Assembly: GCA_002440965.1 (NCBI GenBank)
Contig: DJWJ01000031.1
Coordinates: 6,348-70,347 of the forward strand
DNA: 64,000 nucleotides
Direction of reading: 5' to 3'
Source of the DNA: Candidatus Omnitrophica bacterium UBA6233
GTDB lineage: Bacteria; Omnitrophota; Gorgyraeia; Gygaellales; Profunditerraquicolaceae
Under the pieces are notes generated by a model. That model was not told the DNA's origin and did not search any database. It saw only the letters and a list, made by a program, of their open reading frames with translations. A program made the position numbers and the translations under genes. Positions 17,456-61,837 of this stretch are shown here, one piece after another (the first letter of the stretch is position 1; each line of letters begins with the position of its first letter).

Positions 17456-17470
17456 AAAGGATGGAAAATT

Positions 17471-17629
17471 ATGGGTAAGGCCTCAATTTTACGGGAATTC
17501 TGGGATTTTTTGCGTATCCGAAAAAAATGGTGGCTGGCTCCGGTAATAATTATATTATTTCTTTTAAGTATTTTAATATCTTTGTCGCAAACTAGCGTTG
17601 TCGCTCCCTTTGTATATACTTTATTTTGA
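17471..17629 (+). CDS. DUF5989 (SxtK-like) 52-aa membrane miniprotein
   Basis: AAAGGATGG RBS. ...RKKWWLAPVIIILFLL... shares the KKWWL.P...L motif with the paralog at 18510-18692. Confidence 0.5.
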   Translation: MGKASILREFWDFLRIRKKWWLAPVIIILFLLSILISLSQTSVVAPFVYTLF

Positions 17630-17706
17630 TAACAGCGGAGTCAACCCAGGTAATTATAGGATAGCGTTAGTCGCGCTAGAATTAAGCGAGGTTAATTATA
17701 AAATTT

Positions 17707-35448: not shown

Positions 35449-35523
35449 GTAACTGTAAAAATATAATATTAAAAAGAGGATAGAGAGAATAGGGATAAAT
35501 AGTTTAAAATGGAGGGAGTCGAG

Positions 35524-36261
35524 ATGAAGAAGCTATTTTTCTTATTGCTAATGAATATAAGTCTTTCCGCGACATGTTTATATGCGGGTTATGATTTAGA
35601 AAAGTATTTTCCTACTGGCCAGAAAGATATCTGGGCTTATTCTATGGTGGAACATGATATTGGACAGGAGGCGGGTAAAAATGAAGCGGAGATTGGCGTA
35701 GAAGTAAGATTCTTAAAAGATGGAACAGGGAATGACTTATATGGGCCTATTCGTATGTTAATCAAGTATAGCGATGGAGAACGGAATGAGTATTCTATAA
35801 GCAAGGATTCGGAAGGAATAAAGGTTAGCAAGTTCGTTAAAGAAAACAACTATTATTCCGTTTTTGAACCACCGTTTTTGTTGCTACCTTCTAAAATTAA
35901 CGAAGGAGAAACTAAAGAATATTCTGGTATTATCACTTATTTTGATTCAGATAAGGAAAAAGGGAAAGCAAAGATTAAAAGAGAGCTTACCGCGAATGGT
36001 TTGGAGGATGTAGAGACAAAAGCGGGCGTATTTAAAAACTGCGTTCGCATTTACGTTAAAGAGGTTATTAATAAAGAAAACGGTGAAGTAAAGAATAAGT
36101 TCTATACGTTCTGGTTTAGCCCTGAAGCCGGAGAAGTTAAAGAAGTCGTCAGGACGATTACCTTCCGTTTGGCGGAGAATGAGTATAAAAAAACTTCCTC
36201 CGATGAGAGTACGATGGAGCTAAAAAGAACTACAGTAAACGGGAGAAGTTTTGGTAATTAG
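35524..36261 (+). CDS. Secreted hypothetical protein (signal peptide)
   Basis: GGAGGGAG RBS 7 nt before ATG 35524. MKKLFFLLLMNISLSATCLYA is a signal peptide. Predicted beta-rich. Confidence 0.5.
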   Translation: MKKLFFLLLMNISLSATCLYAGYDLEKYFPTGQKDIWAYSMVEHDIGQEAGKNEAEIGVEVRFLKDGTGNDLYGPIRMLIKYSDGERNEYSISKDSEGIKVSKFVKENNYYSVFEPPFLLLPSKINEGETKEYSGIITYFDSDKEKGKAKIKRELTANGLEDVETKAGVFKNCVRIYVKEVINKENGEVKNKFYTFWFSPEAGEVKEVVRTITFRLAENEYKKTSSDESTMELKRTTVNGRSFGN

Positions 36262-38463: not shown

Positions 38464-40002
38464 GTGAATAAACAGAAAAAAATCAACGATTGGTCGGTAG
38501 CGCTTCTGCTTATTTTTATCTTCTTCCTGTATTCTTATAACCTTACCGGATGGCTAATTCATGATGACGAGGGAGGTTATCTCTATCAGGCCTGGCGGAT
38601 GACAGAAGGGTATGCGCCCTATAGAGATTTTTATACTCCTAAAGAACCGCTTTTTCTTTTTACGGGGAGTTTTATCTTTAAACTTTTCGGCTTGGATATT
38701 TTTTGGGTAAGAATGTTTAGCGTTGTTCTAACTATTCTTACGGGTTATTTGATTTTTTTGATAGGCAGAAGAGTTTATTCCAATGTAATCGCTTTTTCAG
38801 CCGCGCTCCTTTATCTTACCCTGCCTATAGTTTATTCTCAAGCGAGGCTTTTTCGTTCAGATTCTCATGTGGTCTTTTTTTCTACGCTTGGTTTGTTTTT
38901 GTTTCTGAAAGGTTGGCAGGATAAAACCAGGCCTTTTTTCCTTTATAGCGGAATTTTTTATGCCATAGCTTTGGGCTATAAGCTGGCGGCAATATTAGGA
39001 ATGTCCGCCTTAGTTTTTTTTCTTGTCTACGAGGCGGCGATGCGGAAAGAGAAAAGAATTTCCACCTTTTTATATTTTTTTATTCCGTTTGTTTCGGGTT
39101 TTCTGGTTACCTCCGGGATTATTTTAATCATTGTGTTGAATTTATCACCTTCTTTTTTAAATTGCCTAATCAATCATCAATTGGGGCAGCCGCTTTTATC
39201 TTCCGTGCATATGTTCTCAACTTTAAGAAATAACGCAAGGGATTTTTTCATGCTCAATTCTTGCCAATATGATTTGCCAGATACGCAGTCATGGTTGATC
39301 ATTTGGTCGCTACCGGTGATTGTATACTATTTATTTACCTCAAAAGAGACGAGGAAAATACTCTCTTTTTATATTTTTGGCGTTGTTGTCCTGTTATTTA
39401 GCCCATATCCCGGAGAAATATTCCGTTATCTGCTTTATTTCCTTCCCGTTGCAGTACTAGTTTTTACTAGTATCATTTTTTATCTTCTAGGGCGCAAGAG
39501 GAATGTAATTGTCAGGATTCTTGGGCTGGCGGTGCTATTGTTTATTTTGATAAAGATGCTTACCTCGGCTTTTATGAAAGATAAAGCAATTTTTAACGCG
39601 AAAGAAAATGGGACTCTTGCCTTTGCCGGTTATATCAAGAATCATACTGCAGAAGATGATTATGTAGTTGCTGATTATGGAGATGTCCTTTTTCATGCGA
39701 AAAGAAAAACTACTCCTCTTATGGCGGGAATGAGTAAATCAACGGTTGATAACGGAGTTATTACCAGCGATAAACTGATAAGCGAACTGGAGAAATACCA
39801 TGTTAAGATGGTTCTCATCCATAAAGAGGGCGGTATAGATAAAAAATTGGGATTTTATTTGGGAATTCTTCCGCATCATTTCAGTACTTTAATCAATTCA
39901 AAGGATGGATCCCGGTTTTTATCTTATCTTCAGAGTCAATATCAGCTTGTCGCTGACTATAACAGGTCAGGGCAGATATTTTCCGTTTATGTCAGAAAAT
40001 AA
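38464..40002 (+). CDS. GT-C family glycosyltransferase (PMT/ArnT-like)
   Basis: WLIHDDEGGYLYQAWRM loop after TM1. Approximately 11 or more TM segments plus a C-terminal periplasmic domain. Confidence 0.65.
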   Translation: MNKQKKINDWSVALLLIFIFFLYSYNLTGWLIHDDEGGYLYQAWRMTEGYAPYRDFYTPKEPLFLFTGSFIFKLFGLDIFWVRMFSVVLTILTGYLIFLIGRRVYSNVIAFSAALLYLTLPIVYSQARLFRSDSHVVFFSTLGLFLFLKGWQDKTRPFFLYSGIFYAIALGYKLAAILGMSALVFFLVYEAAMRKEKRISTFLYFFIPFVSGFLVTSGIILIIVLNLSPSFLNCLINHQLGQPLLSSVHMFSTLRNNARDFFMLNSCQYDLPDTQSWLIIWSLPVIVYYLFTSKETRKILSFYIFGVVVLLFSPYPGEIFRYLLYFLPVAVLVFTSIIFYLLGRKRNVIVRILGLAVLLFILIKMLTSAFMKDKAIFNAKENGTLAFAGYIKNHTAEDDYVVADYGDVLFHAKRKTTPLMAGMSKSTVDNGVITSDKLISELEKYHVKMVLIHKEGGIDKKLGFYLGILPHHFSTLINSKDGSRFLSYLQSQYQLVADYNRSGQIFSVYVRK

Positions 40003-40183: not shown

Positions 40184-41767
40184 ATGCACTTTATCAATAA
40201 AATATCTTCGATAGCTCAAAAATATAGCCGTTGGTTAATCCCGCTTATACTTTTATCCATATTCTGCTTCTTTTATTTCTATAATATTACCGGGTGGCTA
40301 ATCCATGATGACGAAGGCGGATATTTGTATCACGCTTGGAGGATGAGTCAAGGTGAGTTGCCTTACCGGGACTTTTACAGCACGAAAGAACCCTTTTTTC
40401 TCTATACCGGGTATCTTATTTTTAGTTTCTTAGGCCCCGATGTTCTATGGGTAAGGATTTTTACTGCCATTATTACAATTCTTACCGGTTGTTTGATTTT
40501 CTTGATAGGCAGGCGGGTTTATTCCTATAAAGTAGGTTTTTGGTCTTCAGTCACATATCTTGTTTTACCTGTAGTTTATTTTCAGGCGCGGCGTTATCGT
40601 CCTGATGCTTATGCCGTATTTTTTTCCGTTTTAGGCCTTTTTCTGTTCATAAAAGCCTGGCAAGATAATAAAAATTCATTTTTTGCCTATTCGGGGATTT
40701 CTTACGCAGTTTCATTAGGGTATAAGCTTTCTACTTTTATCGGCATAACAGCCGTATTAATTTTTATTTTTTATCAAGCGGCAACGCAGAGAAGGCTGAG
40801 GATTATAAGCCGGGTTTTAGTTTTATTTATAGGCGGTTTTTTTGTAGCGATAGTTGCTTCATCTATTTTTTTGAATAAGATATCTTTTTTGCTTTTAACC
40901 TGCATATTTAAACATGAGCTTAGCCAGCCATTGTTATTGTTTCCGAATCTAATAACTACCGTGGTGAATAATATAAAAGAATTCTTGATGATTGGGCCGA
41001 AGCAATATGGTTTACGCGATGGCCATTCATGGTTTATAATTTTTTCTCTGCCTCTGGCGATATGTTATTTGTTTGCAAGTAACCAGATAAGAAAGATTTT
41101 TTCTTTTCTCATTCTTTGTTCCTGTTTTATCTTATTAGCCCCTTATCCCAACCAAATCCTGCGTTATTACTTGTATGTGGTTCCCGTGGCTGTTCTAATA
41201 TTTGTAAGCTTCCTATGGTCATTGTTTCAGCACAAGAGGAGTATCTTTATAAGGATATTCGGTGCCTTGATATTAGTATTTATCTTGATAAAAGTTATCC
41301 TGCCGGGTTTGAAAAAAGATAGTGTGCTTTTTTTAGTTAAGGAAGATGGCACAGCCTTATTGGCGGAATACATTAAGAATAATACGCGGGAAACGGATTA
41401 TGTAATGGCTGAATACGGGGACATACTTTTTCATGCCCGGAGAAAGACTACCTATCTTATGGCTGGAATGAGTCAGTCAGCTATAGATAACGGCGTGATT
41501 ACTAGTGATAAGTTAATAAATGAACTTGAGAGCTATCCTGTGAAGATGGTGCTTATACATAGGGAAGGGGGAATACCGGAAAAACAGGGGTTCTTTTTCG
41601 GGACTCCCTATGCGCCGCATCATTTTAGTACCTTGATTAATTCAAAAGACGGCCCTAAATTTATTAGCTATCTGCACAAGCATTATCTATTGACGGATAC
41701 TTTGAACCGGAGTGGAGAGATTTTTGATATTTATTATAAGAAAGAGTCGTTAAATTCCTTGAAATGA
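40184..41767 (+). CDS. GT-C family glycosyltransferase (tandem paralog)
   Basis: WLIHDDEGGYLYHAWRM. Roughly 50% identical to the upstream paralog over the full length. Confidence 0.65.
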   Translation: MHFINKISSIAQKYSRWLIPLILLSIFCFFYFYNITGWLIHDDEGGYLYHAWRMSQGELPYRDFYSTKEPFFLYTGYLIFSFLGPDVLWVRIFTAIITILTGCLIFLIGRRVYSYKVGFWSSVTYLVLPVVYFQARRYRPDAYAVFFSVLGLFLFIKAWQDNKNSFFAYSGISYAVSLGYKLSTFIGITAVLIFIFYQAATQRRLRIISRVLVLFIGGFFVAIVASSIFLNKISFLLLTCIFKHELSQPLLLFPNLITTVVNNIKEFLMIGPKQYGLRDGHSWFIIFSLPLAICYLFASNQIRKIFSFLILCSCFILLAPYPNQILRYYLYVVPVAVLIFVSFLWSLFQHKRSIFIRIFGALILVFILIKVILPGLKKDSVLFLVKEDGTALLAEYIKNNTRETDYVMAEYGDILFHARRKTTYLMAGMSQSAIDNGVITSDKLINELESYPVKMVLIHREGGIPEKQGFFFGTPYAPHHFSTLINSKDGPKFISYLHKHYLLTDTLNRSGEIFDIYYKKESLNSLK

Positions 41768-41818: not shown

Positions 41819-42850
41819 ATGAAAAATATTCCTTTGGCAAGATCAAAGATATTGTCTTGTTATCATGAAATCAAGCAAATAGCAAGAGGAGAAATTCCCG
41901 TTCCGCGCTCTATAAAGATATTTCCCGTAGAGATATGTAATCATAGGTGTAAAGGATGTCATTCTCTTGTTTTGTTTTCAGGCGCGCACCCTTATTTGGA
42001 TACAAATTTATACTATAGGCTTATTGACGAATGGAGCACGTTAGGGGTGGAGAGCGTTAGTTTTGCCGGCGGCGGTGAACCTTTGATGCATCCGAAGATA
42101 AGCAAGTTTATAGAGTATGCTTATAGAAAAAAAATGGGCGTTGGAATTTTGACTAATGGCACTTTATTGGATCAAGAGAAGATTGACACTATACTTTCGT
42201 ATGGGACTTTTATCAGGATAGGCATAGACGGGGCTGATAGGCAGGTTTATGCCGAGCAAACCGGAGTAGACCATTTTGGGTTGCTGTTGGATAATATCAG
42301 AAGAATGATATCCAGAAAAAAGAAGCTGAAATCCAAGATAACCGTAGGATTAAAGTTTCTTATTACAAAGATAAATTATTGTCATGTTAAAAAGGCCTGT
42401 TCGCTTGCTTCGAGATTAGGAGTTGATTATTTGCAATTTAAGACTTCTCGATCAAATGCATACGAGATTAACTCTTTGTGTGCAGATAAAGTTAATCGTG
42501 TTATAGCAGAAGAACAATCCAAGTTAAATAGAAGAGGGTTTTTTATATTTGGCGATGCCCGGAGGACAAATGTCAGCGGCAAGTGTTTCCTCAATATGGT
42601 TAATTCGACATTAGATACGGATGGAAGTTTATACATATGCCCTGCTTTCCAGCATAGAAAGAGAGTTCACAGGATAGCTAGCTTGGTTAAAGAAAGTTTC
42701 GCTAAAGCGTGGTTCAGTAAAAAACATAAAGACAAGGTAAAAAGGATTGATATGCAACAATGCCGGCTTTATAATTGCTCTCTTTTTGAAGCTCATGGCG
42801 TGGCTAAAGAGGCGATACTTGAAGATAAGCTGCATTTGCAATTCATATAA
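41819..42850 (+). CDS. Radical SAM protein (with partial C-terminal Cys cluster)
   Basis: FPVEICNHRCKGCHS (Cx3Cx2C). GGGEPLM. 343 aa. Confidence 0.65.
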   Translation: MKNIPLARSKILSCYHEIKQIARGEIPVPRSIKIFPVEICNHRCKGCHSLVLFSGAHPYLDTNLYYRLIDEWSTLGVESVSFAGGGEPLMHPKISKFIEYAYRKKMGVGILTNGTLLDQEKIDTILSYGTFIRIGIDGADRQVYAEQTGVDHFGLLLDNIRRMISRKKKLKSKITVGLKFLITKINYCHVKKACSLASRLGVDYLQFKTSRSNAYEINSLCADKVNRVIAEEQSKLNRRGFFIFGDARRTNVSGKCFLNMVNSTLDTDGSLYICPAFQHRKRVHRIASLVKESFAKAWFSKKHKDKVKRIDMQQCRLYNCSLFEAHGVAKEAILEDKLHLQFI

Positions 42851-43579: not shown

Positions 43580-44599
43580 ATGCAGCGTATATTGCAAAAA
43601 AGATATTATATAAGAAAATGCCTTTCGTTTCTAAAATCGCTTCTGGCGAAGAAGCGTCTGTTTAATTTCATTGTTTGTTTTGTTTCATTTGTATTAAAGA
43701 AGGATAAATTGACAAGCTATCCTTCTATGATAATGATAGAGCCGACGAATAGATGCAATTTCCATTGTTCTCTTTGCGCTTTGGGCAACGGCTTGGATAA
43801 ACGCCCGGCAGCGGAGTTACCTTTTGAGGCATATAAAAAAACGATAGACGAGCTTTCGGATTACTTGTCATGGGTAATGCTCTATATTCAAGGGGAGCCT
43901 TTGTTGAATAAAGATATTTTTAAAATGGTTGCCTATGCAAAGATGCGTAAAATTTATGTTTCGTTCTCTACTAACGGTTATCTATTGGATAAGGAGAATA
44001 TAAGTCAAATATTGAATTCCGGTTTGGACCATTTGACGGTATCTCTTGATGCGGCTCGGGCAGATACATTTAAAGAATATAAAAAGGTAGACGCTTTTCA
44101 AAAAGTGGTAGGTAATGTAAAGGCATTGGTAGCGCAGAGAAAAAAAGACCGTAGATTAAATCCTTGTATATGCTTGCAGATGATAGCTATAAAGGAGAAT
44201 GAAGGCGAAATAGAAGATTTTCTCGATTTAGCAAGCGAGGTTGGAGTGGATGAGGTATTCATAAAACCGGCAAGAATCGATTTTTTTCCGCAAAAGTTTA
44301 CGGCCTCTCTTCCTAGTGACAAAAAATATATCAGGCCGTCTTATTTGGAATCCCGGGAAGCGCCCAGGAGATGTTTAAAACCGTGGATGTCTTTTGTGAT
44401 AAATTCAGCCGGTGTCGCTGCACCCTGTTGTGAAGATGTGCTTCTTGCTTATCCCATTGGCAATATCTTTAGTGATACCATAGGGGCAATTTGGAACGGA
44501 AAGAGGATGCAGGATTTCCGGTACAATCTATCCCATAAAATCGAGAATAATCCGTTCTGCAAGGACTGTAGTTACAACGTATTCTTCAGGTCATTGTAA
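43580..44599 (+). CDS. Radical SAM/SPASM-domain protein
   Basis: IEPTNRCNFHCSLCA, QGEPLL. C-terminal CLKPW...APCCED...CKDCS SPASM-type cluster. Confidence 0.7.
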   Translation: MQRILQKRYYIRKCLSFLKSLLAKKRLFNFIVCFVSFVLKKDKLTSYPSMIMIEPTNRCNFHCSLCALGNGLDKRPAAELPFEAYKKTIDELSDYLSWVMLYIQGEPLLNKDIFKMVAYAKMRKIYVSFSTNGYLLDKENISQILNSGLDHLTVSLDAARADTFKEYKKVDAFQKVVGNVKALVAQRKKDRRLNPCICLQMIAIKENEGEIEDFLDLASEVGVDEVFIKPARIDFFPQKFTASLPSDKKYIRPSYLESREAPRRCLKPWMSFVINSAGVAAPCCEDVLLAYPIGNIFSDTIGAIWNGKRMQDFRYNLSHKIENNPFCKDCSYNVFFRSL

Positions 44600-48086: not shown

Positions 48087-49380
48087 GAAAAAGGTTATTA
48101 TTTTAGGCGCAGGGCTTACCGGATTAAGCGCTGCCTGGCATCTTCAAAAGAGGAGTATACCTTACATAATTTTTGAAAAAGAAAGGTCTATCGGGGGGCT
48201 TTGCCGTTCTAAAAAAATAGACGGCTTTACTTTTGATTGTGATGGGCATATGTTGCATTTTAGGCATCGTTATGTTTTTAATCTGGTAAAAAGCCTCTTA
48301 GGCGATAATCTGGTGAAGCATGAGAGAAACGCTTGGATTCATTTTTATGATAGGCTAATCCGTTATCCTTTTCAGGCTAATCTTTTTGGCTTGCCATCCC
48401 GTATCGCCCGAGAGTGCCTTACGGGTTATCTTAAAGTTCATAAGAACAAGCTTTATGAGTATGCTAACTTTGAGGATTGGATAAAGTTTACTTTCGGTTA
48501 CGGAATAGCCAAACACTTTATGATTCCTTATAATTCCAAGTTTTGGACTCTTCCCTTAAAAGAATTGACCTGCGATTGGCTTGCCGGTTTTATTCCTATC
48601 CCTACCAGAGAACAGGTTGTGCTTGGCGCGAAAAGAGATGTTCCAAAGCAATTTGGTTATAATGCGAGTTTTTGGTACCCAAGGTCTGGAGGGATCAACG
48701 AATTACCCAAGGTTTTGGCTTGTGGATTAAAAGATGTTCGGATTGGATGCCGCGCCAAGCGGATAGACTTAAAGAAAAAAGAAATAAGTTTAAGCTCTGG
48801 AGGTAAGGAAACGTTTGATTGCTTGATTTCTACTATTCCTTTACCTGAGGTTTGGCATATTGCGCCGGATCTTCCCGCTAGTGTCGCAGTGTCATTTAAG
48901 AAGTTAAAATGGAATTCCATTTTTAATTTTAATATCGGTTTGAACCATTGCGGAAACCACAACAGGCACTGGATTTACTTTCCCGATAATAAGCTGTGTT
49001 TTTTCAGGGTAGGTTTCATTAATAATATTTCATCTTCTCTTGTCCCGCGCGGTAAAAGTTCGATGTATATAGAAGTGGCTTACTCCCGGGAAAGACCGTT
49101 AGATAAGAGAAAGATAATAACGAACATTATCAGGGATTTAAAAAGCGTTAACCTGATTTCCTGTCCGGATGAGGTATGCCTTCAGGACATTAACGATATA
49201 GAATACGGTTATCCGATTTATGATTTATTTTATAAGCATTCTAGAGACAATGCTGTTGGATTCCTCAGAGAAAACGGCGTAATTTCTTGCGGCCGTTACG
49301 GGTCTTGGAGATATATGTCTATGGAAGATGCGATACAGGATGGAAGGAGGGCAGCAGATGAAGTTGGCAAGCTTTTTTAA
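48079..49380 (+). CDS. FAD-dependent oxidoreductase (amine-oxidase/UDP-galactopyranose-mutase-like fold)
   Basis: KKVIILGAGLTGLSAA...FEKERSIGG is a Rossmann FAD-binding GxGxxG. 433 aa. Confidence 0.55.
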   Translation: MAKKKVIILGAGLTGLSAAWHLQKRSIPYIIFEKERSIGGLCRSKKIDGFTFDCDGHMLHFRHRYVFNLVKSLLGDNLVKHERNAWIHFYDRLIRYPFQANLFGLPSRIARECLTGYLKVHKNKLYEYANFEDWIKFTFGYGIAKHFMIPYNSKFWTLPLKELTCDWLAGFIPIPTREQVVLGAKRDVPKQFGYNASFWYPRSGGINELPKVLACGLKDVRIGCRAKRIDLKKKEISLSSGGKETFDCLISTIPLPEVWHIAPDLPASVAVSFKKLKWNSIFNFNIGLNHCGNHNRHWIYFPDNKLCFFRVGFINNISSSLVPRGKSSMYIEVAYSRERPLDKRKIITNIIRDLKSVNLISCPDEVCLQDINDIEYGYPIYDLFYKHSRDNAVGFLRENGVISCGRYGSWRYMSMEDAIQDGRRAADEVGKLF

Positions 49381-50152
49381 AGAAAGAATCCGGAAACTTT
49401 TTTTATGCCGTCGTGTATTTATTGATATGGCTTTGCGCCAGTTTAAAGAAAAATATGCAGGTTCCAAACTCGGTTTATGGTGGGCGGTAGTTACGCCTTT
49501 ACTTTTTGCCGTGAGTATCAATTTTGTCTTTATCTCGGTTTTTAATATACAAATGCCCAACTATACTTTATTTGTTCTATCTGGAATGATCCCTTGGTTC
49601 TTTTTTACGAATTCTCTCTCGGAGGCCGCAGGTTCATTTTTATCTAACTCCTCAATCTTGAGGCAGACTCTTGTTCCTCGAGAGTTCATTCCAATGGCTT
49701 CGGTTATGGCAAGCCTTCTGAATTTCGCAATGGGTTTAATCTTTTTGTTACCCTTTTTTATAATCGCCAATATAAAAGTTTTAACGATCATGCCCTTATT
49801 ATCGGTGGTTATATTATTTCACTTTATTTTTATTGCAGGTTTCGCGCTATTGTTATCCGTCCTCAACGTTTTTATGAGGGATTTACCGCATATCTTGTCG
49901 ACTTTATTCATGGTTTGGTTTTGGATTACTCCGGTGTTCTATTCAATAGATATGGCACCTGCTTCTTTTTTATGGGTATGTTTCATAAATCCAATGACCC
50001 ATTTTGTAGTGATATATCGGGAAATATTGTTTCAAGCCAAGTTTCCTCCCCTCGGTAATTTCTTTATTCTAGGTTTACTGTCCTTGGGATTTTTCTTGAT
50101 AAGTTACCTTATTTTTATATTAAAAGAACCCGAGTTATTAAAAAGAATATGA
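49358..50152 (+). CDS. wzm: ABC-2 type polysaccharide exporter permease (Wzm/TagG/KpsM-like)
   Basis: GGAAGGAGG RBS before ATG 49358. Six TM segments. ABC-2 signature region. The track ORF begins earlier at 49328 and overlaps the upstream gene. Confidence 0.75.
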   Translation: MKLASFFKERIRKLFLCRRVFIDMALRQFKEKYAGSKLGLWWAVVTPLLFAVSINFVFISVFNIQMPNYTLFVLSGMIPWFFFTNSLSEAAGSFLSNSSILRQTLVPREFIPMASVMASLLNFAMGLIFLLPFFIIANIKVLTIMPLLSVVILFHFIFIAGFALLLSVLNVFMRDLPHILSTLFMVWFWITPVFYSIDMAPASFLWVCFINPMTHFVVIYREILFQAKFPPLGNFFILGLLSLGFFLISYLIFILKEPELLKRI

Positions 50153-52911
50153 AAAGAGTCGAAATCAAAGGAGCTTGGGAAAAATATCTCATAAAATTTA
50201 TTAATCAAGGCAAGGTTTCTTGGGAAGAAATCTGGGCTCTAGAGGATATAAATCTTGAAATTGATAAAGGACAAACCGTATGTTTAATTGGACAGAATGG
50301 GTCTGGGAAAACTACTCTTTTGAGGTTGATTGCCGGAATGCTCCTTCCGGATAAAGGTGAAGTTAATGTTGATGGCAGGGTTTCTGCTTTGATGGAACTT
50401 GGTGCGGGGTTCAATCCGGAATTTACGGGTAGAGAGAATATTTCGCTTAACGCCAGGATGTATGGATTAAGCGATGAAGCCCTGGCAGGCTCTTTGACTA
50501 AGATTATAGATTTTGCCGATTTGGGTAAATTTATCGATGCTCCAATAAAATATTATTCTCAAGGTATGTTCATGCGCTTAGCCTTTAGTTTGGCAATATT
50601 CGTTGAGCCGGACATACTTTTGATTGACGAAGTTTTATCCGTGGGTGACGAAGAGGCAAGGCAAAAATGTATCAAGATGATCTTTGACCTGAAGAATGCG
50701 GGTAAAACAATAGTTTTAGTGACTCACGATTTAGATATGGCGGTTAAATTGTGCGATCGCGCCATTCTTATAGAAAAAGGAAAGATCATAAAGGACGGAT
50801 TACCCAAGAAAATAATACCTTATTATTTTGAGACTATCGGGGATAAATCTGGAGTTGCTGTTCTTGGTTACGATAAGTATAGAATCGTGTTTAATAATGG
50901 AAAACTTAGTATTTCCTACGAAGATAATCTTCTTAGCAGGGGTTTCGGAGGCTCGCTTTCTTTTTTCTCTCCCTGTATTAATAGATGGTTATCATCTTCA
51001 GATTTGTCTTGGAAGATCAATAGATTATCTGAAAATAAAATTATTGCTGAGGGTAGTTCTGGAAGCCAGGCATTGTCTCAGATATGGACAGTTGAGCTGC
51101 TTGAAAACCAGCTTAAATGGGACATGGAACTTAAAGAAAGCTTGGCCGTTGATCCCCATATGGATTTATTTTTAAGCCCGGATTATAAGAAGCTTTTTAC
51201 CGCAGACAAAGATATGGATATACCCGATTTTTCGAATAAGTCAGATTGGCAGGAGTTGTATGCTTCTCGTGATTTTCTGGGTTTTTCTGCTCCGGATAAA
51301 AGCGCGAGTCTGCCTTTATTATTGTTTAAAGCAAATGATCGGAGTGTTCCATTTAGGGCTTTTAACACAGGTTATATCCAGGAAGCGCGGGTAATGCAGG
51401 CGCATCTTGGCGATGACCGCATTTTTTCGTTCAGTATAAGATTTTTTCCTTCTCGGAAAGACTTTGAAGATCTTATCTGGATTCTAAAGGAGGAATTGCG
51501 CCAGAAGCGCGAAGCGGAAGAACAGGAAAAAGCGAGGGCGCAGAAAGCGAAAGATGAAGAACGGATTTTGGCGCAAACTCTTCAAGCCGGAAATTTCCGT
51601 GTTTTTGCGGATGTTGATAGTAGGAAAGTAAAGATTTATTTTAGAGAAAGAGAAGTCAGCAGCGGAAAAGGAATTTATTCGGATATATGTATGGCCGAAA
51701 GCGGCGTTTGGATAAACCCGGATTTTGCGCAGTGGCAAGTAAGAAGAACCTGCCCGGAGGAATTGAGCTTGATTTTTGTTTTCCCGGAACTATTTTTTCG
51801 TCAGATTTGGGTATTCAGGGCGGTTGATAATAGGATAATTCTTAAGGTATCGTTGGAGACCGACAAGCAGTTTTCAATAATTTCTCAATATTTAAGATTT
51901 GAGGTCAGCGATAAATTTAAGGAATGGAAAACAATTTATGAAAAAGGTGATGTTGCGGCCAAACAATATTATAACAATATCGCGCCAATAAGAATCAAAG
52001 ATAATAAAGTTACAGAGATAATCTTGGGGGCTGGATCCGGTAATGAAATTGCGCCTCTGGGTATTCGTTCTTATTCAGGGTATGGCACAAAAACATTAAG
52101 TGTTTTTAAAAAGAAAGAATCAAATGGTGAGTCTATTTGCGTTAATTATTCGGCTATTATTCCGAGGAATGCGCAGTTGATTTCTCCCGGCAGAGTAGAT
52201 TTATTTGAGGGGGAGATAGTTTTTAGTGGCGGTATCAGTTTAAGTGAACCCATAAAGAAAACCGGTATTCTGAAAAGGAATAATCTTGGATTTATTTTTG
52301 ATTCCGGCAGAGGAAAGATTTTTTTTGATGGCAGAGAATTGACCAAAGATTTGGGAGTATATACTTCTTTGCGTTCAAACGGAATTTGGTATGATTCGTT
52401 TCAGGGGGTTTGGGACTTTGAATGTTTGGATGATTTTAGGATGATAGCCAGAGGAGACTGGCAATGTATTCCTGTTTCGCAAACCTGGATCATAGAATTT
52501 CTGAAGGAAGGCTGTATATATTGGAAAGTGGTAATGGATGTTTATGAGGTCGTTGATTTGGAAATCCAACAAGCGAGCGTTATGCTTTCGCCGGAATACA
52601 AAATTTGGGAGGTTTCGGGTATACCCAAAGGATATTTTTCGCAAGGCTATACTAATGATTATGATATTTTGCCTTTTAGATTTTGGAATGGAAAATCGGG
52701 AGAAACCGGGCTCTGTGCTTCGGGAGATAAAATACCCGGTGTATGTTTTAAGAATATTCGGGATGAGGCATTTTGTAATGCCATTGTGGAGAATACCGAT
52801 TCAATTTACCGTGGGAGGCTGCTTCAATATCAAAAGGAAAACTTGCATAAACTTTTACCGGGTAAATACGACTATTTTGAAGGGGTAATAAAGATTGAAT
52901 CTACGGGATAA
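50149..52911 (+). CDS. wzt: ABC transporter ATPase (Wzt/TagH-like) with about 690-aa C-terminal extension
   Basis: GQNGSGKTT (Walker A), YSQGMFMRLAFS (signature), LLIDEVLSVGD (Walker B). Extension contains three repeat modules and a charged coiled coil. Confidence 0.8.
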   Translation: MKRVEIKGAWEKYLIKFINQGKVSWEEIWALEDINLEIDKGQTVCLIGQNGSGKTTLLRLIAGMLLPDKGEVNVDGRVSALMELGAGFNPEFTGRENISLNARMYGLSDEALAGSLTKIIDFADLGKFIDAPIKYYSQGMFMRLAFSLAIFVEPDILLIDEVLSVGDEEARQKCIKMIFDLKNAGKTIVLVTHDLDMAVKLCDRAILIEKGKIIKDGLPKKIIPYYFETIGDKSGVAVLGYDKYRIVFNNGKLSISYEDNLLSRGFGGSLSFFSPCINRWLSSSDLSWKINRLSENKIIAEGSSGSQALSQIWTVELLENQLKWDMELKESLAVDPHMDLFLSPDYKKLFTADKDMDIPDFSNKSDWQELYASRDFLGFSAPDKSASLPLLLFKANDRSVPFRAFNTGYIQEARVMQAHLGDDRIFSFSIRFFPSRKDFEDLIWILKEELRQKREAEEQEKARAQKAKDEERILAQTLQAGNFRVFADVDSRKVKIYFREREVSSGKGIYSDICMAESGVWINPDFAQWQVRRTCPEELSLIFVFPELFFRQIWVFRAVDNRIILKVSLETDKQFSIISQYLRFEVSDKFKEWKTIYEKGDVAAKQYYNNIAPIRIKDNKVTEIILGAGSGNEIAPLGIRSYSGYGTKTLSVFKKKESNGESICVNYSAIIPRNAQLISPGRVDLFEGEIVFSGGISLSEPIKKTGILKRNNLGFIFDSGRGKIFFDGRELTKDLGVYTSLRSNGIWYDSFQGVWDFECLDDFRMIARGDWQCIPVSQTWIIEFLKEGCIYWKVVMDVYEVVDLEIQQASVMLSPEYKIWEVSGIPKGYFSQGYTNDYDILPFRFWNGKSGETGLCASGDKIPGVCFKNIRDEAFCNAIVENTDSIYRGRLLQYQKENLHKLLPGKYDYFEGVIKIESTG

Positions 52912-55900
52912 CTATTATAAATTCAAAAGACATTTGGAGTCTAAAGGAGGATTCTACGCTTTATGCAGAGGCCTAAAATATATTTTATATTTATTTAGGC
53001 ATAGCGGAGCTTTGTTTCGCAGCCGAAATATTATCGAAAAAGGTAAGCTTAAGTTGGTATTTAACGGTCACGGAATTTCAATTTTCTGGGATAATATTGA
53101 AATTACCAAAAATGCCGGGTTAAATTGCGGCATAAAGATATCGGAAGCATGGACTGATTCCACGAAGGCAAAGTGGAAGGTTCTGGAGAGTGGGCCGGAT
53201 TTGCTTAAGTTCTCAGTTTGTTTCAAAAAATTGCCCCTAAGACAAATCTGGACATTAGGAGTAGATAGCCAGGAAATTTTCCTTTGGCATATAGATCTAG
53301 AAGTAAAATCTTCCATATTAATAGATGAACTGCGTTTTATAAATCAAGTTCGGCCAGTTTATAAGGCTTGGTTATCGGATTATCTACAAAATTATTTTCC
53401 CCGTTTAGACAATTGCTGGCATGATTTGAACGGTAATGAAGATGGATCGGTTTGTCTTGTAGGTTTAAGACATCCGAGGCAGGCAGATATACCTCGTTGT
53501 TTGGTTTTGGAAACGCAGGATGGTGTTTTGCCGGCTTTGATTCAGAATACCCCAAAACAACACGGCACTAATTTAATAGGTTTTAAGTTAATCAGGAAAG
53601 GCGTGGAAAGAAATTATTATCCGGGGATGCACAGTATTTTTTCCTGCCGGATAAATATTTTTATTGAGGATGAACCTTTGGATATAAAGATTGAGCATTT
53701 GCGTAGAAGTATTTTCGATAAATCTTTGGCTGCTAAGGCCGTAGAAGATAAAACTAGAAAAAAGCCGAGTGTTTCATTGGTTAATTTGCCTTGGAAGAGG
53801 GGAGGGAAATGGGGGGTGCGTGCCGGTTCGCGCTGGCCGCATATACTTGACGATAGCGAGACAAATTATTTGCCGTTTCCGTTCTTTCTGGCTTACGCTG
53901 CGGCATTGCTGCAGAAAAATTATTTTTCGGTCAGCCTTATTGACGCTATTGCAGAGCAGCTTGATGAAGAAGTTTTTTTGAAGAAAATTACCGGATTGAA
54001 CATTGATTTTCTGGTTGCGGAAACATCCACCCCGTCTTTTTATAATGATTTGGCTATTTTAAAGAAAATTCATTCTTCTTTGGGTATTCCGATAATACTT
54101 TGCGGACCGCACTTTGAGATTTACCAAACTCAGATTTTGAAAGATAACGATTTTATAGCTTATACGCTATTTGGAGAATATGAATTTACTCTACTTGAGC
54201 TTTTGGTTAGTTTGGCAGAGAAGAAAGATTTATCCGGGGTGAAGGGTTTAATTTGGAGAGCAGGGAGTGACGTTATCAAAAATCCGGCGCGGGAGGCTTG
54301 TGATATAAATCTTTTGCCTTGGCCTCTTCGGGACGCCTTGCCTATGGGAAAATACATGGATTTGCCTGGAGGATTGCCTATTCCTTCGGTTCAGATGCTG
54401 TCTTCCCGAGGGTGCCCTTTTAGGTGCACGTTTTGTCTTTGGCCGCAGGTATTTTATTCCGGGCGCGATTACCGGCCGAGGGATGTTGGGGACGTAGTAA
54501 ATGAAATGGAGTATTTGGTAAAGGTTAAAGGATTCAAATCTATATATTTTGATGACGATACATTCAATATTGGCAAAGAAAGGATTCTCGAATTTTGCAA
54601 ACAGGTTAGAGGCAAAGGATTGCAAAACATACCTTGGGCGGTAATGGCAAGAGCTGATTTAATGGACAAGGGAATCCTTTCCGAAATGAAATCCGCCGGC
54701 CTTTGGGCGGTGAAATATGGAGTTGAATCCGAAAATCAATTATCAGTTGATGATTGCGAAAAGAGACTGGACTTAAGAAAAGTTACTGAAATTGTCGGAA
54801 TCACCAAATCCCTCGGGATAAAAACCCATCTTACGTTCTGCTTTGGTTTTCCTGGGGAGACGGATAAAAGTATTCGGAAAACCATAGATTATTCATTGAA
54901 ACTCGACTCCGATTCCGCCCAATTTTCCATTCTTACTCCGTTTCCCGGAACGGAATTGTTTGAGCGGTTAGACAATGAGAATAGGATACTTACGAAGGAC
55001 TGGTCAAAATATGATGGCCATCACAGTTGTGTTTTTCAGCCAGATATTTTGACCGTGGATGATTTGGAAAAGGCAAAAGAGAAGGCTTGTGTTATTTGGG
55101 CTCAGAGTAAGCTGGGCAAGAGGCATCTTGGTTATGATTTTGGTTTATTGTTGCAATACCAAAGAATCGGCGGGTTGGCATATGCTTTAAAAAGGGCATT
55201 TCATTATTGCTCCGGGAGGGTTACCGGAGCAATGCGGAATTCCTATGAACGGATGTTTGGTTTTGCCAAGGGGGCGGGATTTCTTACGGCAAAATTTTTA
55301 AAATACATTATCGATGGTGATGCCCGGCGTCACTACCTGCAGCTTCAAGGGGTTCATAGCGGTGAATACGCCTTTGTCGGCCCCAATCACGTGCAGGTCG
55401 ATTTGACTAACAATTGCAACAATAATTGTCTGGCTTGCTGGTGTAATTCTCCGCTTTTAGAGGAGAAAGCTTTGGGTTTGGAAGCTAAGGAGCAAGAACT
55501 TCCATTGAATTTGGTTAAAAGGCTGCTTGATGAATTAGCTTCTATGAGGACAAAGGAAATTTATTTTTCCGGAGGAGGGGAGCCTTTTGTCCATCCTGAC
55601 ATTATGGAGATTCTTGAGTATGCAAAACATAAAAAATTCATCTGTTATGTGAATACGAATTTCACCTTGTTTGATAGGAATAAGATTGATAGCTTAGTTA
55701 GAATGAGGATGGATCATTTAACGGTAAGCACTTGGGCAGCTACTCCTAATACATATTCCATAACCCATCCCAATAAGGATAAATCCGTTTTTTGCGACAT
55801 CATTGACAATCTCAAGTATTTGAATTCCATAAAGAGGGGCAAACCGGGCGTAAAATTATATAATGTCATTTTTAACAAGAATTTTTTTGAATTGGAAGAT

Positions 55901-56533
55901 ATGATTGAGATAGCATCCCGGACAGGTTCCGAATTTGTCGAATTTACTTTAATCGACACGATACCGGGTAAAACCGAGGAATTACTTTTAGATTCACGCC
56001 AGATCGCAGAATTGCGTAATTTAGCGGAAAAGATTTCGTGTAAACTAGACAATGCGGGTTGTTATAAAGGAGTGAAGGTTTTGAATTTCAAATCATTCTT
56101 AAGGCGTATTGCCAGCGATTCCGACCTAAAAAAAGCGACATATGACCGCAACATTATCGATAAAATTCCCTGTTATGCCGGGTGGATTTTTAGCCGTATT
56201 ATGCCTAACGGTGATGTTAACGCATGTCTTAAGGCGCATAGGATTCCCATGGGTAATCTATATAAAGCAAGTTTCAGGGAGATTTGGAATGGCGACAAAC
56301 AAAGGTATTTCCGGAAAAAAACATTGGTTTACGAAAAAAACGATTGTTTCTTCAAGTCTATCGGAAATGATCCGGAAGTTCAAGAGGCAGGATGCTATAA
56401 GAGTTGTGATGATATAGAGAGAAATACTTCATTTCATCGAAAAGTCAGCAGCCTTAATTTATTTGAGAAGAATTTTGTCGGTATTTTCTCAAAGCTTAAA
56501 AGGGTGAAGATTCGAAATGGAAAAAAAATCTAG
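52895..56533 (+). CDS. Tri-domain fusion: Wzt-C-terminal-like repeat module + B12-binding radical SAM + radical SAM/SPASM
   Basis: aa 50-140 alignable with the Wzt extension repeats (..PLRQIWTLGV....FLWHIDLEV). CPFRCTFCLW (nt about 54413-54443). NNCNNNCLACW (nt about 55411-55441). CYAGW...DVNAC SPASM/twitch (nt about 56170-56240). 1212 aa. Confidence 0.7.
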   Translation: MNLRDNYYKFKRHLESKGGFYALCRGLKYILYLFRHSGALFRSRNIIEKGKLKLVFNGHGISIFWDNIEITKNAGLNCGIKISEAWTDSTKAKWKVLESGPDLLKFSVCFKKLPLRQIWTLGVDSQEIFLWHIDLEVKSSILIDELRFINQVRPVYKAWLSDYLQNYFPRLDNCWHDLNGNEDGSVCLVGLRHPRQADIPRCLVLETQDGVLPALIQNTPKQHGTNLIGFKLIRKGVERNYYPGMHSIFSCRINIFIEDEPLDIKIEHLRRSIFDKSLAAKAVEDKTRKKPSVSLVNLPWKRGGKWGVRAGSRWPHILDDSETNYLPFPFFLAYAAALLQKNYFSVSLIDAIAEQLDEEVFLKKITGLNIDFLVAETSTPSFYNDLAILKKIHSSLGIPIILCGPHFEIYQTQILKDNDFIAYTLFGEYEFTLLELLVSLAEKKDLSGVKGLIWRAGSDVIKNPAREACDINLLPWPLRDALPMGKYMDLPGGLPIPSVQMLSSRGCPFRCTFCLWPQVFYSGRDYRPRDVGDVVNEMEYLVKVKGFKSIYFDDDTFNIGKERILEFCKQVRGKGLQNIPWAVMARADLMDKGILSEMKSAGLWAVKYGVESENQLSVDDCEKRLDLRKVTEIVGITKSLGIKTHLTFCFGFPGETDKSIRKTIDYSLKLDSDSAQFSILTPFPGTELFERLDNENRILTKDWSKYDGHHSCVFQPDILTVDDLEKAKEKACVIWAQSKLGKRHLGYDFGLLLQYQRIGGLAYALKRAFHYCSGRVTGAMRNSYERMFGFAKGAGFLTAKFLKYIIDGDARRHYLQLQGVHSGEYAFVGPNHVQVDLTNNCNNNCLACWCNSPLLEEKALGLEAKEQELPLNLVKRLLDELASMRTKEIYFSGGGEPFVHPDIMEILEYAKHKKFICYVNTNFTLFDRNKIDSLVRMRMDHLTVSTWAATPNTYSITHPNKDKSVFCDIIDNLKYLNSIKRGKPGVKLYNVIFNKNFFELEDMIEIASRTGSEFVEFTLIDTIPGKTEELLLDSRQIAELRNLAEKISCKLDNAGCYKGVKVLNFKSFLRRIASDSDLKKATYDRNIIDKIPCYAGWIFSRIMPNGDVNACLKAHRIPMGNLYKASFREIWNGDKQRYFRKKTLVYEKNDCFFKSIGNDPEVQEAGCYKSCDDIERNTSFHRKVSSLNLFEKNFVGIFSKLKRVKIRNGKKI

Positions 56534-57980
56534 CTGTAATCCAATCGTTTCGGGGGCAGATATCCTTTTGGTGATACCCCCTCCTTTTTTTACTAGAATG
56601 CCGCATATAGGAGTGGCATATTTGTCGAGTTTTCTCAAGGCCAAAGGGTTTAAAGTCTCTGTTTATGATTTAAGCCTGAAGCTATATAATTGCGCGACAG
56701 ACGAACTGAAGGAATTCTGGCAGATCGATCTTCTTAATAAGTTATTTGTTACGGAAGCAGCCGATTCTGTTTATAAGAATTTTGAGCAGCAAATAACCAG
56801 ATTTGTGGAGGATGTGTTAGCTACCGATATTAAAGTAATAGGTTTTTCCGTGAATATTATAAGTATATTTTTGGCTAATCGCATAGCGATGGAAATCAAG
56901 AGGAGAGACCCGGGTAGGTTCATTATTTTTGGCGGACCAGGAACATATTTCAAGCATCCGCGTGAATTAACCGAATCCGGATTTGTCGACTTGTATATAA
57001 TAGGGGAAGGCGAATTGACTCTTAGTAACATTTTAATTTCTTATTATTCGGGAAAAAATATAGAAACAGCTCCAGGGATATTGTCGGGGAATGATCTAGG
57101 CAGGTGCCAGGCCATCCCCGGGCAGACTATACATAACCTAGATACAATACCTCCGCCGACATTTTCAGAGTTCAATCTTGGTGACTACAATCAGGGTAAC
57201 GAATATAAACCGTTGCCTTTGCTTTTAAACCGTGGTTGTATTAATAGGTGTTCATATTGTATTGATTGTATAATGTGGCCGAAATACAGATCCAGATCCC
57301 CAAAACATATTATGGCCGAGATTGATTATCATATTAACAAAAACAATACCAAAGCTTTCGAGATTCTTGATTTGACTTGTAATGGTAATCTTGGACAGCT
57401 TTCAAAAACATGCGGTTTAATTATCGACTCAGGTTATAAGTTTGATTGGGTCAGTTATGCAGTCATCCGCAGGAATATGGATTTTGCGCTTTTGAGAAAA
57501 ATGAAACAGGCCGGTTGCAATACTTTGATATATGGCGTGGAAAATGGTTCGGATAGAATTTTAAAGAAGATGGGGAAAAGATATACGGCAAAAGAGGCTT
57601 CTGGGGTAATCCGGACTACACATAAAGCCGGGATCCGGGTGAATATAAATATCATCGTGGGGTTCCCGGGAGAAACGGAGAAAGATTTTGAAGATACAAT
57701 TGATTTTATCCGCGAGAACAAAGATTATATCAATGAGGTTACAAATGTATCAGGCTGCACATTATTCCCTGAAGCAGAGATTGGGATAAACAGTAGGAAA
57801 TACGGTATAGTCTGGGATGAGCATAGCGAGCCGATGCTGTATGAGGATTCAAATGGACTAAACCGGTCCGGAAGAATTGAGCGTGTGGCTAGAATGGTAG
57901 AGGCAATCAGCGAATTAAACCTGTCCAAGTCTATAATTAACAAGCCGGCTCTCGCCCCAATCATGAGAGAAGCTAGATGA
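56517..57980 (+). CDS. B12-binding (class B) radical SAM enzyme
   Basis: N-terminal B12-binding fold (ILLVIPPPFF...KGFKVSVYD). NRGCINRCSYCIDC is a CxxxCxxC motif. 487 aa. Confidence 0.75.
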   Translation: MEKKSSCNPIVSGADILLVIPPPFFTRMPHIGVAYLSSFLKAKGFKVSVYDLSLKLYNCATDELKEFWQIDLLNKLFVTEAADSVYKNFEQQITRFVEDVLATDIKVIGFSVNIISIFLANRIAMEIKRRDPGRFIIFGGPGTYFKHPRELTESGFVDLYIIGEGELTLSNILISYYSGKNIETAPGILSGNDLGRCQAIPGQTIHNLDTIPPPTFSEFNLGDYNQGNEYKPLPLLLNRGCINRCSYCIDCIMWPKYRSRSPKHIMAEIDYHINKNNTKAFEILDLTCNGNLGQLSKTCGLIIDSGYKFDWVSYAVIRRNMDFALLRKMKQAGCNTLIYGVENGSDRILKKMGKRYTAKEASGVIRTTHKAGIRVNINIIVGFPGETEKDFEDTIDFIRENKDYINEVTNVSGCTLFPEAEIGINSRKYGIVWDEHSEPMLYEDSNGLNRSGRIERVARMVEAISELNLSKSIINKPALAPIMREAR

Positions 57981-61336: not shown

Positions 61337-61837
61337 ATGAAAAAGTCGTTAGTTAGAATAGGGCTGATAATTCTGGGATTGCTGTTAATTAGCCTATCGA
61401 TTTGGTTGGCTATAAGATTAAATGAAGTGCAGACGGAACTAAATATCGAGCGTCAGCTTAGCGCAAGCCTGCAGAAAGAACTTGCCGCCACCAGGATTAA
61501 GCTCGATAGAGTCAAGGTAGAGCTGGATAATACTCGAAAACAGCTTAATGAGGTTAATAAAAGATCTGCGGTAATGCAAGGCGACAATATTAAGTTATCT
61601 ATTGAGAAGAAAACCTTAAAGGCAAAATTGGATTCCTTGAAAGAGCTAAAGGCTGCTATCGAACGAGTCAAAAGGGAGATATTGCAGCAAAAACAGCAAG
61701 AACTTTTGGCTAGAAAAGAAGCGCAGAGAGAAAAGAATGTTCGTAAGTTAGCCGAAGGAAACCGCGGTTTTGTTTTGAAAGACAGTAAGTCAACATATAA
61801 GCCGACGGTAAAAATTGAAGTTCGTCCCGGTTGTTAA
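61337..61837 (+). CDS. Membrane-anchored coiled-coil protein (hypothetical)
   Basis: N-terminal TM (IGLIILGLLLISLSIWLAI), then heptad-rich charged helix. 166 aa. Confidence 0.5.
   Translation: MKKSLVRIGLIILGLLLISLSIWLAIRLNEVQTELNIERQLSASLQKELAATRIKLDRVKVELDNTRKQLNEVNKRSAVMQGDNIKLSIEKKTLKAKLDSLKELKAAIERVKREILQQKQQELLARKEAQREKNVRKLAEGNRGFVLKDSKSTYKPTVKIEVRPGC

Follow-up and report, generated by a model that had tools for sequence, protein, structure and literature searches.

A Wzt protein with a triplicated C-terminal module

The 64-kb window analyzed in this study, meaning the whole stretch of DNA taken from the uncultivated Candidatus Omnitrophica bacterium UBA6233, contains on its + strand a two-gene ATP-binding cassette (ABC) exporter. 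Its ATPase is a Wzt-type protein of 920 amino acids (aa) whose nucleotide-binding domain (NBD) is followed by an extension of about 690 aa. This extension is an array of three paralogous copies (modules 1 to 3) of a previously undescribed β-supersandwich domain of about 213 aa, and a fourth copy (module 4) lies near the start of the next gene, which encodes a radical S-adenosylmethionine (radical SAM) enzyme (Table 1). A protein identical to the window Wzt, P0001, is present in the database with the label 'ABC transporter ATP-binding protein, Ca. Omnitrophota', and it comes from metagenome-assembled genomes (MAGs) of Candidatus Omnitrophota.

The earlier note on this DNA had described an ABC ATPase domain with an extension of about 690 aa, which the open reading frame (ORF) and the Pfam and NCBIfam matches bore out, and had pointed to three similar motifs in the extension. 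These motifs are real. They start at aa 310, 551, and 777 (nt 51076, 51799, and 52477) and fall in equivalent alignment columns, but the repeating unit is the module of about 213 aa and not a core of 20 aa, and the three motifs represent one conserved strand pair of this module. When segments of the extension were aligned with each other and compared with 300 shuffled sequences, the Smith-Waterman z scores were 12.4 (modules 1 and 3), 10.7 (modules 2 and 3), and 4.9 (modules 1 and 2). We also built a leave-one-out profile from 60 modules, all of them from other organisms; neither the window nor its near-identical relative contributed to it. This was a stricter test since it avoids circularity. 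It gave 134, 128, and 195 bits for modules 1, 2, and 3, while the best of 200 shuffled decoys scored 6.5 bits. Profiles specific for the position classes described below gave 206 bits for module 1 ('first'), 194 bits for module 2 ('penultimate'), and 291 bits for module 3 ('last'). The triplication suggested earlier thus stands by both tests. In a self-comparison of the whole protein by blastp, only the identity match was found and the repeat was invisible; it emerged only from segment-against-segment comparison and from comparison with the downstream protein.

The modules have no counterpart in the domain databases searched. With the whole Wzt protein as query, Pfam (E ≤ 0.1) matched only P-loop families, and nothing, including PF14524/Wzt_C, was found in the extension. 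When 18 modules were searched separately (E ≤ 1), only scattered single-member matches were obtained, and the weak ones to DUF6876, BigA_N, CBM_11, and others were rejected as noise (one member each, E ≥ 0.005). No NCBIfam model matched the module, and the module profile had no match among PDB sequences, including the solved Wzt carbohydrate-binding domains (CBDs), at E ≤ 10. Overall, aa 232-920 of the window Wzt match no Pfam or NCBIfam family, and the PDB sequence match ends at aa 254.

A fourth copy in the downstream radical SAM enzyme

The gene that follows Wzt overlaps the Wzt stop by 17 nt. By blastp, each of the three Wzt modules aligned to aa 42-219 of its 1212-aa product (E = 1e-9 to 2e-5). 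This fourth copy, which the earlier note had overlooked, scored 165 bits with the leave-one-out profile and 212 bits with the profile of its own class. Conversely, a profile made solely from enzyme-borne modules of other loci gave 38, 60, and 103 bits for Wzt modules 1, 2, and 3 (best decoy 4.6 bits). A six-frame scan of the 64-kb window revealed no module copy beyond these four.

Behind the module, Pfam Radical_SAM matched aa 503-666 (E = 4.5e-33), and Pfam B12-binding matched aa 330-436 at 31.8 bits, slightly below the cut-off of 32.1. HpnJ/BchE-like NCBIfam models matched as well (E = 3e-61 and 6e-45; HpnJ-like 208 bits vs a cut-off of 578), and models of radical SAM maturases matched the SPASM region, all under their cut-offs. 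By its domain order, the protein belongs to the class B (B12-binding) radical SAM enzymes. It contains two complete radical SAM units in one chain, a B12-binding unit (aa 310-703) and a SPASM unit (aa 830-1150). Related loci, numbered L001 to L017 and described below, have either two B12-binding units (L003, L011, and L017) or one unit, and the catalytic cargo behind the module therefore varies. The next gene in the operon encodes a further B12-binding radical SAM protein, and it overlaps the preceding stop by 17 nt too.

The 46 residues ahead of module 4 form a basic and aromatic leader that is conserved in 14 of the loci L002-L017, at the corresponding position. Its consensus is roughly N-Y-x-K-F-K-x-H-L-K-x-G-G-x-x-Y-A-F-W-R-G-I-K-Y-F-I-F-L-V-R. 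The leader looks amphipathic, and hydropathy gives no transmembrane segment for it. It could act as a docking peptide or as an in-plane membrane anchor.

Predicted fold of the module

A model of module 3 (aa 708-920) was built with AlphaFold2 (AF2) from an alignment of 18 modules. It had a pLDDT of 90.8, a pTM of 0.89, and 16 β-strands. With this model as query, Foldseek gave 25 matches in the PDB at E ≤ 1e-3, and nearly all of them were β-supersandwich (galactose-mutarotase-like) domains. The top match was the GalN-ase 9awt_A (E = 2e-6, TMq 0.71). Further neighbors were GH97, GH38, and GH63 enzymes, 1,2-β-oligoglucan phosphorylase, PL17 alginate lyase, rhamnogalacturonan lyase, heparinase III, galactose mutarotase, and the periplasmic P1 domain of YidC (TMq 0.61-0.66). 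The module is thus predicted to be a 16-strand galactose-mutarotase-like β-supersandwich and not a jelly roll. The likeness to the GH36-like GalN-ase 9awt, GH97, GH38, GH63, PL17, heparinase III, and YidC P1 is at the level of the fold (E = 2e-6 to 1e-3, TMq 0.5-0.71), whereas the identity of these domains from carbohydrate-active enzymes (CAZymes) and YidC to the module is 6-12% and no Pfam family of their clan was matched. Moreover, tandem arrays on an ABC ATPase, as formed by the module, are a setting in which these domains have not been seen.

The canonical Wzt CBD is a single jelly roll of about 150 aa that dimerizes by strand exchange and binds the cap at the chain end (PMC9445017). No Wzt CBD was among the 50 best Foldseek matches listed for the module 3 model; since the canonical domain is a jelly roll, the extension is not a triplicated classical carbohydrate-binding module. 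This was what the earlier note had suggested for the repeats, and the lack of a Wzt_C match in Pfam and of a PDB match, together with the predicted supersandwich fold, speaks against it. The Pfam search, the PDB profile search, the Foldseek search, and the end of the PDB alignment at aa 254 all rule out a classical Wzt CBD as the identity of the module.

The Wzt proteins of E. coli O9a, R. terrigena / K. pneumoniae O12, and A. aeolicus share with the window protein the Wzt-type NBD, a Wzm partner gene, and a cluster for a polyprenol-linked glycan, and they also have a soluble all-β domain fused directly behind the C-terminal helix of the NBD. In contrast to the one CBD of these proteins, the window Wzt has three supersandwich modules of about 213 aa (two to eight in the family) that are unrelated in sequence. 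It also differs in the charged helix behind module 1 and in the module copy on a neighboring enzyme. The view in the earlier note that such an architecture is unusual therefore holds when it is compared with the single jelly-roll CBD of characterized Wzt proteins (PMC9445017). Within the Omnitrophota module family, by contrast, arrays of several copies are the norm.

Four residues are nearly invariant throughout the family (W48, Q71, W73, and F203). Q71 and W73 are at positions i and i+2 of one strand, so that both should point to the same side of the sheet, an arrangement that would resemble a Trp/Gln sugar platform.

The charged helix between modules 1 and 2

The full-length protein was modeled with AF2 from an alignment of 39 homologs with three modules (pLDDT 88.4, pTM 0.54). 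The order in the model is NBD (aa 1-217), helix (aa 219-229), module 1, helix (aa 436-475), module 2, a short non-helical linker, and module 3. The charged segment EELRQKREAEEQEKARAQKAKDEE starts at aa 448 (nt 51490) and lies within the predicted helix aa 436-475. The earlier note had read this segment as a coiled coil reminiscent of the molecular ruler of WbdD. The segment is indeed charged and predicted to be helical, but it is part of a single helix of 40 residues with poor heptads. In the helix core (aa 446-476), 71% of the residues are E, K, R, D, or Q and four are large hydrophobic residues; the best heptad register places hydrophobic residues at three of nine a/d positions. In the model, aa 436-475 thus has the look of a charged spacer made of a single helix and not of a coiled coil of the WbdD type, and neither helix length nor heptad content supports a WbdD-like coiled-coil ruler.

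Helix is predicted only between modules 1 and 2, and the linker between modules 2 and 3 has about 12 residues. In homologs, 'first' and 'middle' modules are followed by a gap with a median of 14-15 residues (7-29 in the listed examples), which is often rich in charges. Behind the first module alone it is 12-29 residues (median 14.5 in the listed homologs), and ahead of the last module it is about 12 residues and less charged.

WbdD of E. coli O9a is a kinase/methyltransferase with a long coiled coil. The two systems would be alike in concept, the coupling of an enzyme that modifies the chain end to CBD-dependent export, and in both the enzyme and the exporter are encoded in one cluster. However, the window enzyme is a B12 and SPASM radical SAM protein, and no kinase or class-I methyltransferase Pfam domain was found in the window Wzt or in the downstream protein. 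The coiled coil of WbdD is on the enzyme side, while in the window the only helix is on the transporter, with 40 residues and no heptads.

Distribution and architectures of the module family

An exhaustive HMMER search with the module profile against 1.84 billion representative proteins identified 661 proteins at E ≤ 1e-3 (333 of them at E ≤ 1e-30), each with two to nine matched stretches. A word-indexed homolog search was insensitive by comparison, with six matches for the extension and three for the module profile. Architectures were tabulated for 155 family proteins (the 150 best HMMER matches and the homologs from the word search). Among these 155, an NBD is followed by three modules in 47 proteins, by two in 17, by four in 15, by five in 12, and by eight in one. 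Many of the remaining entries consist of modules only and are probably fragments, and several others are fused to radical SAM domains. P0097 combines B12-binding radical SAM and SPASM radical SAM domains with two modules, and P0023 contains an NBD, five modules, and a radical SAM/SPASM region in one chain. Four membrane glycosyltransferases of the GT39/PMT_2 type (P0090, P0115, P0136, and P0146) have two to four C-terminal modules. The metagenomic protein P0145 (791 aa) has a signal- or anchor-like sequence, a sulfatase domain, and two modules. Such a set of fusion partners is typical of a substrate-targeting module. All family members whose source is named, among the best 150 of the 661 that were inspected, are from Candidatus Omnitrophota.

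The anaerobic sulfatase maturases are among the radical SAM enzymes of the SPASM type. That the recurrent association of module, SPASM radical SAM domain, and sulfatase reflects sulfated glycans is pure speculation.

Conserved gene pairing and position classes

With an alignment of four 'last' modules, we retrieved 17 loci (L001 to L017) from GTDB species representatives, all of them MAGs. They are labeled Candidatus Omnitrophota/Omnitrophica, 'uncultured Planctomycetia/Planctomycetales bacterium', or 'uncultured bacterium'. Since the alignment of four sequences is biased to close relatives, the counts below cover one clade of the family. Sixteen loci had enough sequence downstream of Wzt to be evaluated. 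In 14 of the 16, the next ORF overlaps the Wzt stop, begins no more than about 20 nt from it, and opens with exactly one module, at about residue 50. This module is fused to a B12-binding radical SAM domain in ten loci and to a radical SAM/SPASM domain in one; in L001 the ORF is cut by the contig end, and L009 and L014 encode stand-alone module proteins of 300 aa followed by separate B12-binding radical SAM genes. In the two exceptions, L008 (688-2283) and L012 (1269-2897), a PMT_2 glycosyltransferase follows Wzt instead. Fusion in most loci, fission in some, and a single chain in one protein, P0023, are the pattern classically seen when proteins, here the exporter, the module, and the radical SAM enzyme, are functionally linked. 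In L007 a further radical-SAM-like ORF of the same operon (16909-18312) has one module at its C-terminus (aa 257-468), indicating that more than one enzyme per locus can carry the module.

When 64 modules were compared across loci, all but one had their best match in a module at the same position. Five orthologous classes can be distinguished: first, middle, penultimate, last, and enzyme-borne. Within classes the mean scores reach 144-221 bits, compared with 26-69 bits between them, and the identity between classes is about 20%. The 'last' class is by far the most conserved (221 bits); four of its orthologs share 66 invariant positions, with D42, D132, R137, E174, D177, R183, and K189 among them. 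The enzyme-borne module is on average closest to the 'last' class (69 bits mean). Arrays lengthen by extra 'middle' modules, and in closer relatives they follow the grammar NBD-F-(M)n-P-L, where the letters stand for first, middle, penultimate, and last; the window Wzt is F-P-L. We claim this grammar for the closer relatives only, because the class profiles are ambiguous for distant family members. A 'last'-class module also terminates the GT39 fusions P0090 (191 bits) and P0146 (157 bits), and thus the class is not specific to contact with an NBD.

The exporter genes and the surrounding glycan cluster

In the N-terminal part of the exporter ATPase, Pfam ABC_tran matched aa 31-162 (E = 8e-20), and NCBIfam models of the TagH and Wzt/RfbE kind matched aa 26-231 (E = 5e-54 to 4e-45, all under equivalog cut-offs). 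The closest solved relative is A. aeolicus Wzt (8dku/7k2t, E = 1e-61, aligned aa 22-254). The Walker A (GQNGSGKT), signature (YSQGM), Walker B (ILLIDE), and H-loop (VTHD) motifs were found by eye in the translation. The A. aeolicus alignment also spans the helix aa 219-229, which lies at the position of the hinge helix described for Wzt (PMC9445017). The permease stop and the Wzt start overlap by 4 nt. Since the NBD is closest to A. aeolicus Wzt, the gene overlaps that of a Wzm-type permease, and a glycan assembly cluster surrounds the pair, the sequence justifies the name Wzt for the 920-aa ATPase.

The NBD also resembles those of the teichoic-acid exporter ATPases TagH/TarH (NCBIfam PRK13545/PRK13546, E = 5e-54 and 9e-48; PDB TarH 6jbh, E = 3e-50), but the window protein is far under the equivalog cut-off (184 vs 538 bits). 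The extension of B. subtilis TagH includes a membrane segment and an extracellular part. A TagH-like membrane-spanning extension was ruled out in the window Wzt, where hydropathy gives zero transmembrane candidates in the extension; the single candidate in the 920-aa protein, aa 141-159, is within the NBD.

Table 1. Features of the exporter genes and of the radical SAM genes behind them (positions in the window)
Feature	Position	Strand	Basis
Wzm-like ABC-2 permease gene	49328..50152	+	Pfam ABC2_membrane, E = 1.2e-12; ORF coordinates
Wzt-type ABC ATPase with C-terminal module array, 920 aa	50149..52911	+	ORF; identical database protein
NBD, aa 1-217	50149..50799	+	Pfam, NCBIfam, and PDB matches; motifs
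Helix behind the NBD, aa 219-229, matching the Wzt hinge helix in position	50803..50835	+	AF2 full-length model
Module 1, 'first' class, aa 236-433	50854..51447	+	Profile scores; all-β in full-length model
Charged 40-residue α-helical linker, aa 436-475	51454..51573	+	AF2 (continuous helix); composition
Module 2, 'penultimate' class, aa 477-692	51577..52224	+	Profile scores
Module 3, 'last' class, most conserved, aa 705-917	52261..52899	+	Profile scores; AF2 model; Foldseek
Radical SAM protein, 1212 aa	52895..56533	+	ORF; Pfam B12-binding, Radical_SAM (2 stretches), SPASM
Conserved basic/aromatic N-terminal leader, aa 1-46	52895..53032	+	Aligned across 14 loci
Module 4, 'enzyme' class, aa 47-262 of the radical SAM protein	53033..53680	+	blastp; profiles
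B12-binding radical SAM catalytic region, aa ~310-703	53822..55003	+	Pfam; NCBIfam
Second radical SAM/SPASM region, aa ~830-1150	55382..56344	+	Pfam SPASM (aa 1093-1142), Fer4_12 (aa 839-920)
Further B12-binding radical SAM gene, same operon	56517..57980	+	Pfam Radical_SAM, E = 3.7e-20; B12-binding, E = 7e-11

The + strand operon forms a glycan assembly cluster, with a WecA-like Glycos_transf_4 gene (47103), an epimerase gene (44792), glycosyltransferase genes of the GT4 type (45941, 58092, and 59239) and the GT2 type (42884 and 60375), two PMT_2 GT-C enzymes, an AsnB-like amidotransferase, and unusually many radical SAM genes. The two PMT_2/GT39-type GT-C glycosyltransferases, upstream of the exporter at 38464-40002 and 40184-41767, have no modules. 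Six radical SAM genes with seven radical SAM domains, B12-binding and SPASM types among them, were found within 26 kb (32227-33207, 34465-35448, 41819-42850, 43580-44599, 52895-56533, and 56517-57980). Their number hints at extensive radical chemistry on a surface glycan or its precursors. Two ORFs in or flanking the cluster, 35509-36261 (250 aa) and 61337-61837 (166 aa), had no Pfam match at E ≤ 1e-3.

Nearly all long ORFs of the window are on the + strand and the G+C content is about 33-44%. The GC skew is positive in every 2-kb bin of the window and the cumulative skew climbs monotonically, which fits a single replichore with strong gene co-orientation.

Discussion

Export of glycans by ABC transporters with a recognition region at the C-terminus of Wzt is known; the domain family, its position-specific tandem array, and its sharing with an enzyme are new. 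With a confidence slightly above even, we propose that the modules are glycan-recognition domains for the product of the cluster, which replace the CBD of Wzt and target a modifying enzyme. This reading is based on three observations taken together. The modules are at the position of the Wzt recognition domain, their fold is that of sugar-binding or accessory domains of CAZymes, and they are associated with several glycan-processing enzymes. The module-bearing enzymes of this kind are probably on both sides of the membrane.

In such a system, the Wzt modules would bind the polyprenol-linked glycan at the cytoplasmic face and bring it to the Wzm/Wzt channel, which is the task of the CBD in classical Wzt proteins. 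The single module on the translationally coupled B12/SPASM radical SAM enzyme would direct this enzyme to the same polymer. The shared module suggests that glycan modification is tied to export. Modification, possibly capping, and export might thus be coupled by a common recognition domain, a logic like that of WbdD and Wzt built from other parts. The positions of the array are differentiated, which makes distinct sub-roles of the single modules probable. The first module, for example, might pack against the NBD or the hinge helix, and the strongly conserved last module might be the main ligand site.

Several points weigh against glycan recognition. The β-supersandwich does not bind sugar in every protein; in many glycoside hydrolases its main task is to support the catalytic domain or oligomerization, and the role of YidC P1 is unclear. 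The putative extracytoplasmic site of the GT39 and sulfatase fusions was derived from hydropathy in a crude way. All NCBIfam equivalogs for the radical SAM enzyme are far below their cut-offs, and its capping or modifying role is drawn from the genomic context. Finally, the pTM of the full-length model (0.54) means that the domains are predicted with confidence while their mutual arrangement is uncertain.

The main rival is a scaffold for docking between proteins, in which the modules pair with each other and do not bind glycan, the Wzt array would be a cytoplasmic platform for module-tagged enzymes, and the single module of the enzyme would dock on one Wzt module, most likely the last. We consider this rather unlikely. 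The enzyme-borne class is indeed nearest to the 'last' class of Wzt, both in the mean score and in the 103 bits that module 3 of the window obtained with the enzyme-class profile; the genes are translationally coupled by their 17-nt overlap, and P0023 unites both in a single chain. The canonical Wzt CBD is itself a homodimerizing β-sandwich (PMC9445017), and the conserved leader of the enzyme could serve as a docking peptide. However, the module is also present on a signal-anchored sulfatase and on GT39 membrane glycosyltransferases, for which a cytoplasmic Wzt partner is unlikely. The long-conserved position classes, with about 20% identity between them, fit differentiated ligand sites at least as well.

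It is improbable, in our view, that the array and its helical linkers act as a modular spacer that sets the distance from the membrane or NBD to a distal site, namely the last module, a docked enzyme, or both. In that case the number of modules (two to eight) would tune the chain length of the glycan, in functional analogy to the WbdD ruler. Copy numbers of two to eight on Wzt NBDs would fit such a role, as would the way in which close relatives vary by 'middle' modules between conserved ends, and the gaps behind first and middle modules (7-29 residues) are often charged and helix-like, with a 40-residue helix in the window. But the helix is short and has no heptad pattern, and the arrangement of domains in the model is not rigid. 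The middle modules form a conserved class (148 bits mean), suggesting that they do more than fill space. A spacer would also coexist with binding or docking and not replace either.

Very improbable is catalysis, in which one or more modules act on the glycan before export as mutarotase/epimerase-like or lyase-like enzymes; the structural neighbors include galactose mutarotase and supersandwich domains of lyases and hydrolases, and the 'last' class is very strongly conserved, with several acidic and basic residues (those listed above) among its invariant positions, but the 213-aa module covers only about 40% of a mutarotase (TMt 0.36-0.42) with 8-11% identity, the supersandwich of CAZymes is usually a non-catalytic accessory domain, and only W, Q, W, and F are conserved across all classes, with no acid/base pair, which makes catalysis by the modules unlikely.

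Glycan recognition by the modules could also be combined with distance, in a bold proposal to which we give little credence. In this 'measure-and-hand-over' device, the last module and a module-tagged radical SAM enzyme docked beside it would be held at a distance from the membrane set by the number of middle modules and their helix linkers. Only chains that reach the last module would be modified and released to the Wzm channel, and the radical SAM chemistry would provide the terminating signal. If true, the transporter itself would contain a ruler for glycan length made of protein domains.

In our literature search, no paper was found that links Wzt, carbohydrate-binding modules, and radical SAM enzymes, and no account was found of polysaccharide export of this kind by ABC transporters in Omnitrophota. 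The system is not mentioned in a 2026 preprint on Omnitrophota genomes.

To our knowledge, CBD-dependent export of O antigens is understood from a few proteobacterial systems and that of Aquifex, and in each of them one jelly-roll domain reads a chemical cap. The Omnitrophota, as a phylum, have a different solution, with an unrelated and undescribed domain family in position-specific arrays of two to eight. The module profile provides a handle for annotating hundreds of proteins that are now labeled 'hypothetical' or 'ABC transporter ATP-binding protein'. If the modules bind glycan, as we infer from their position, fold, and partners, they would be a new family of carbohydrate-binding modules. 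In that case this would also be the first known case, in the literature searched, of an exporter and a modifying enzyme that share a recognition domain, and it would point to radical SAM enzymes acting on a surface polysaccharide, a kind of chemistry that has hardly been explored.

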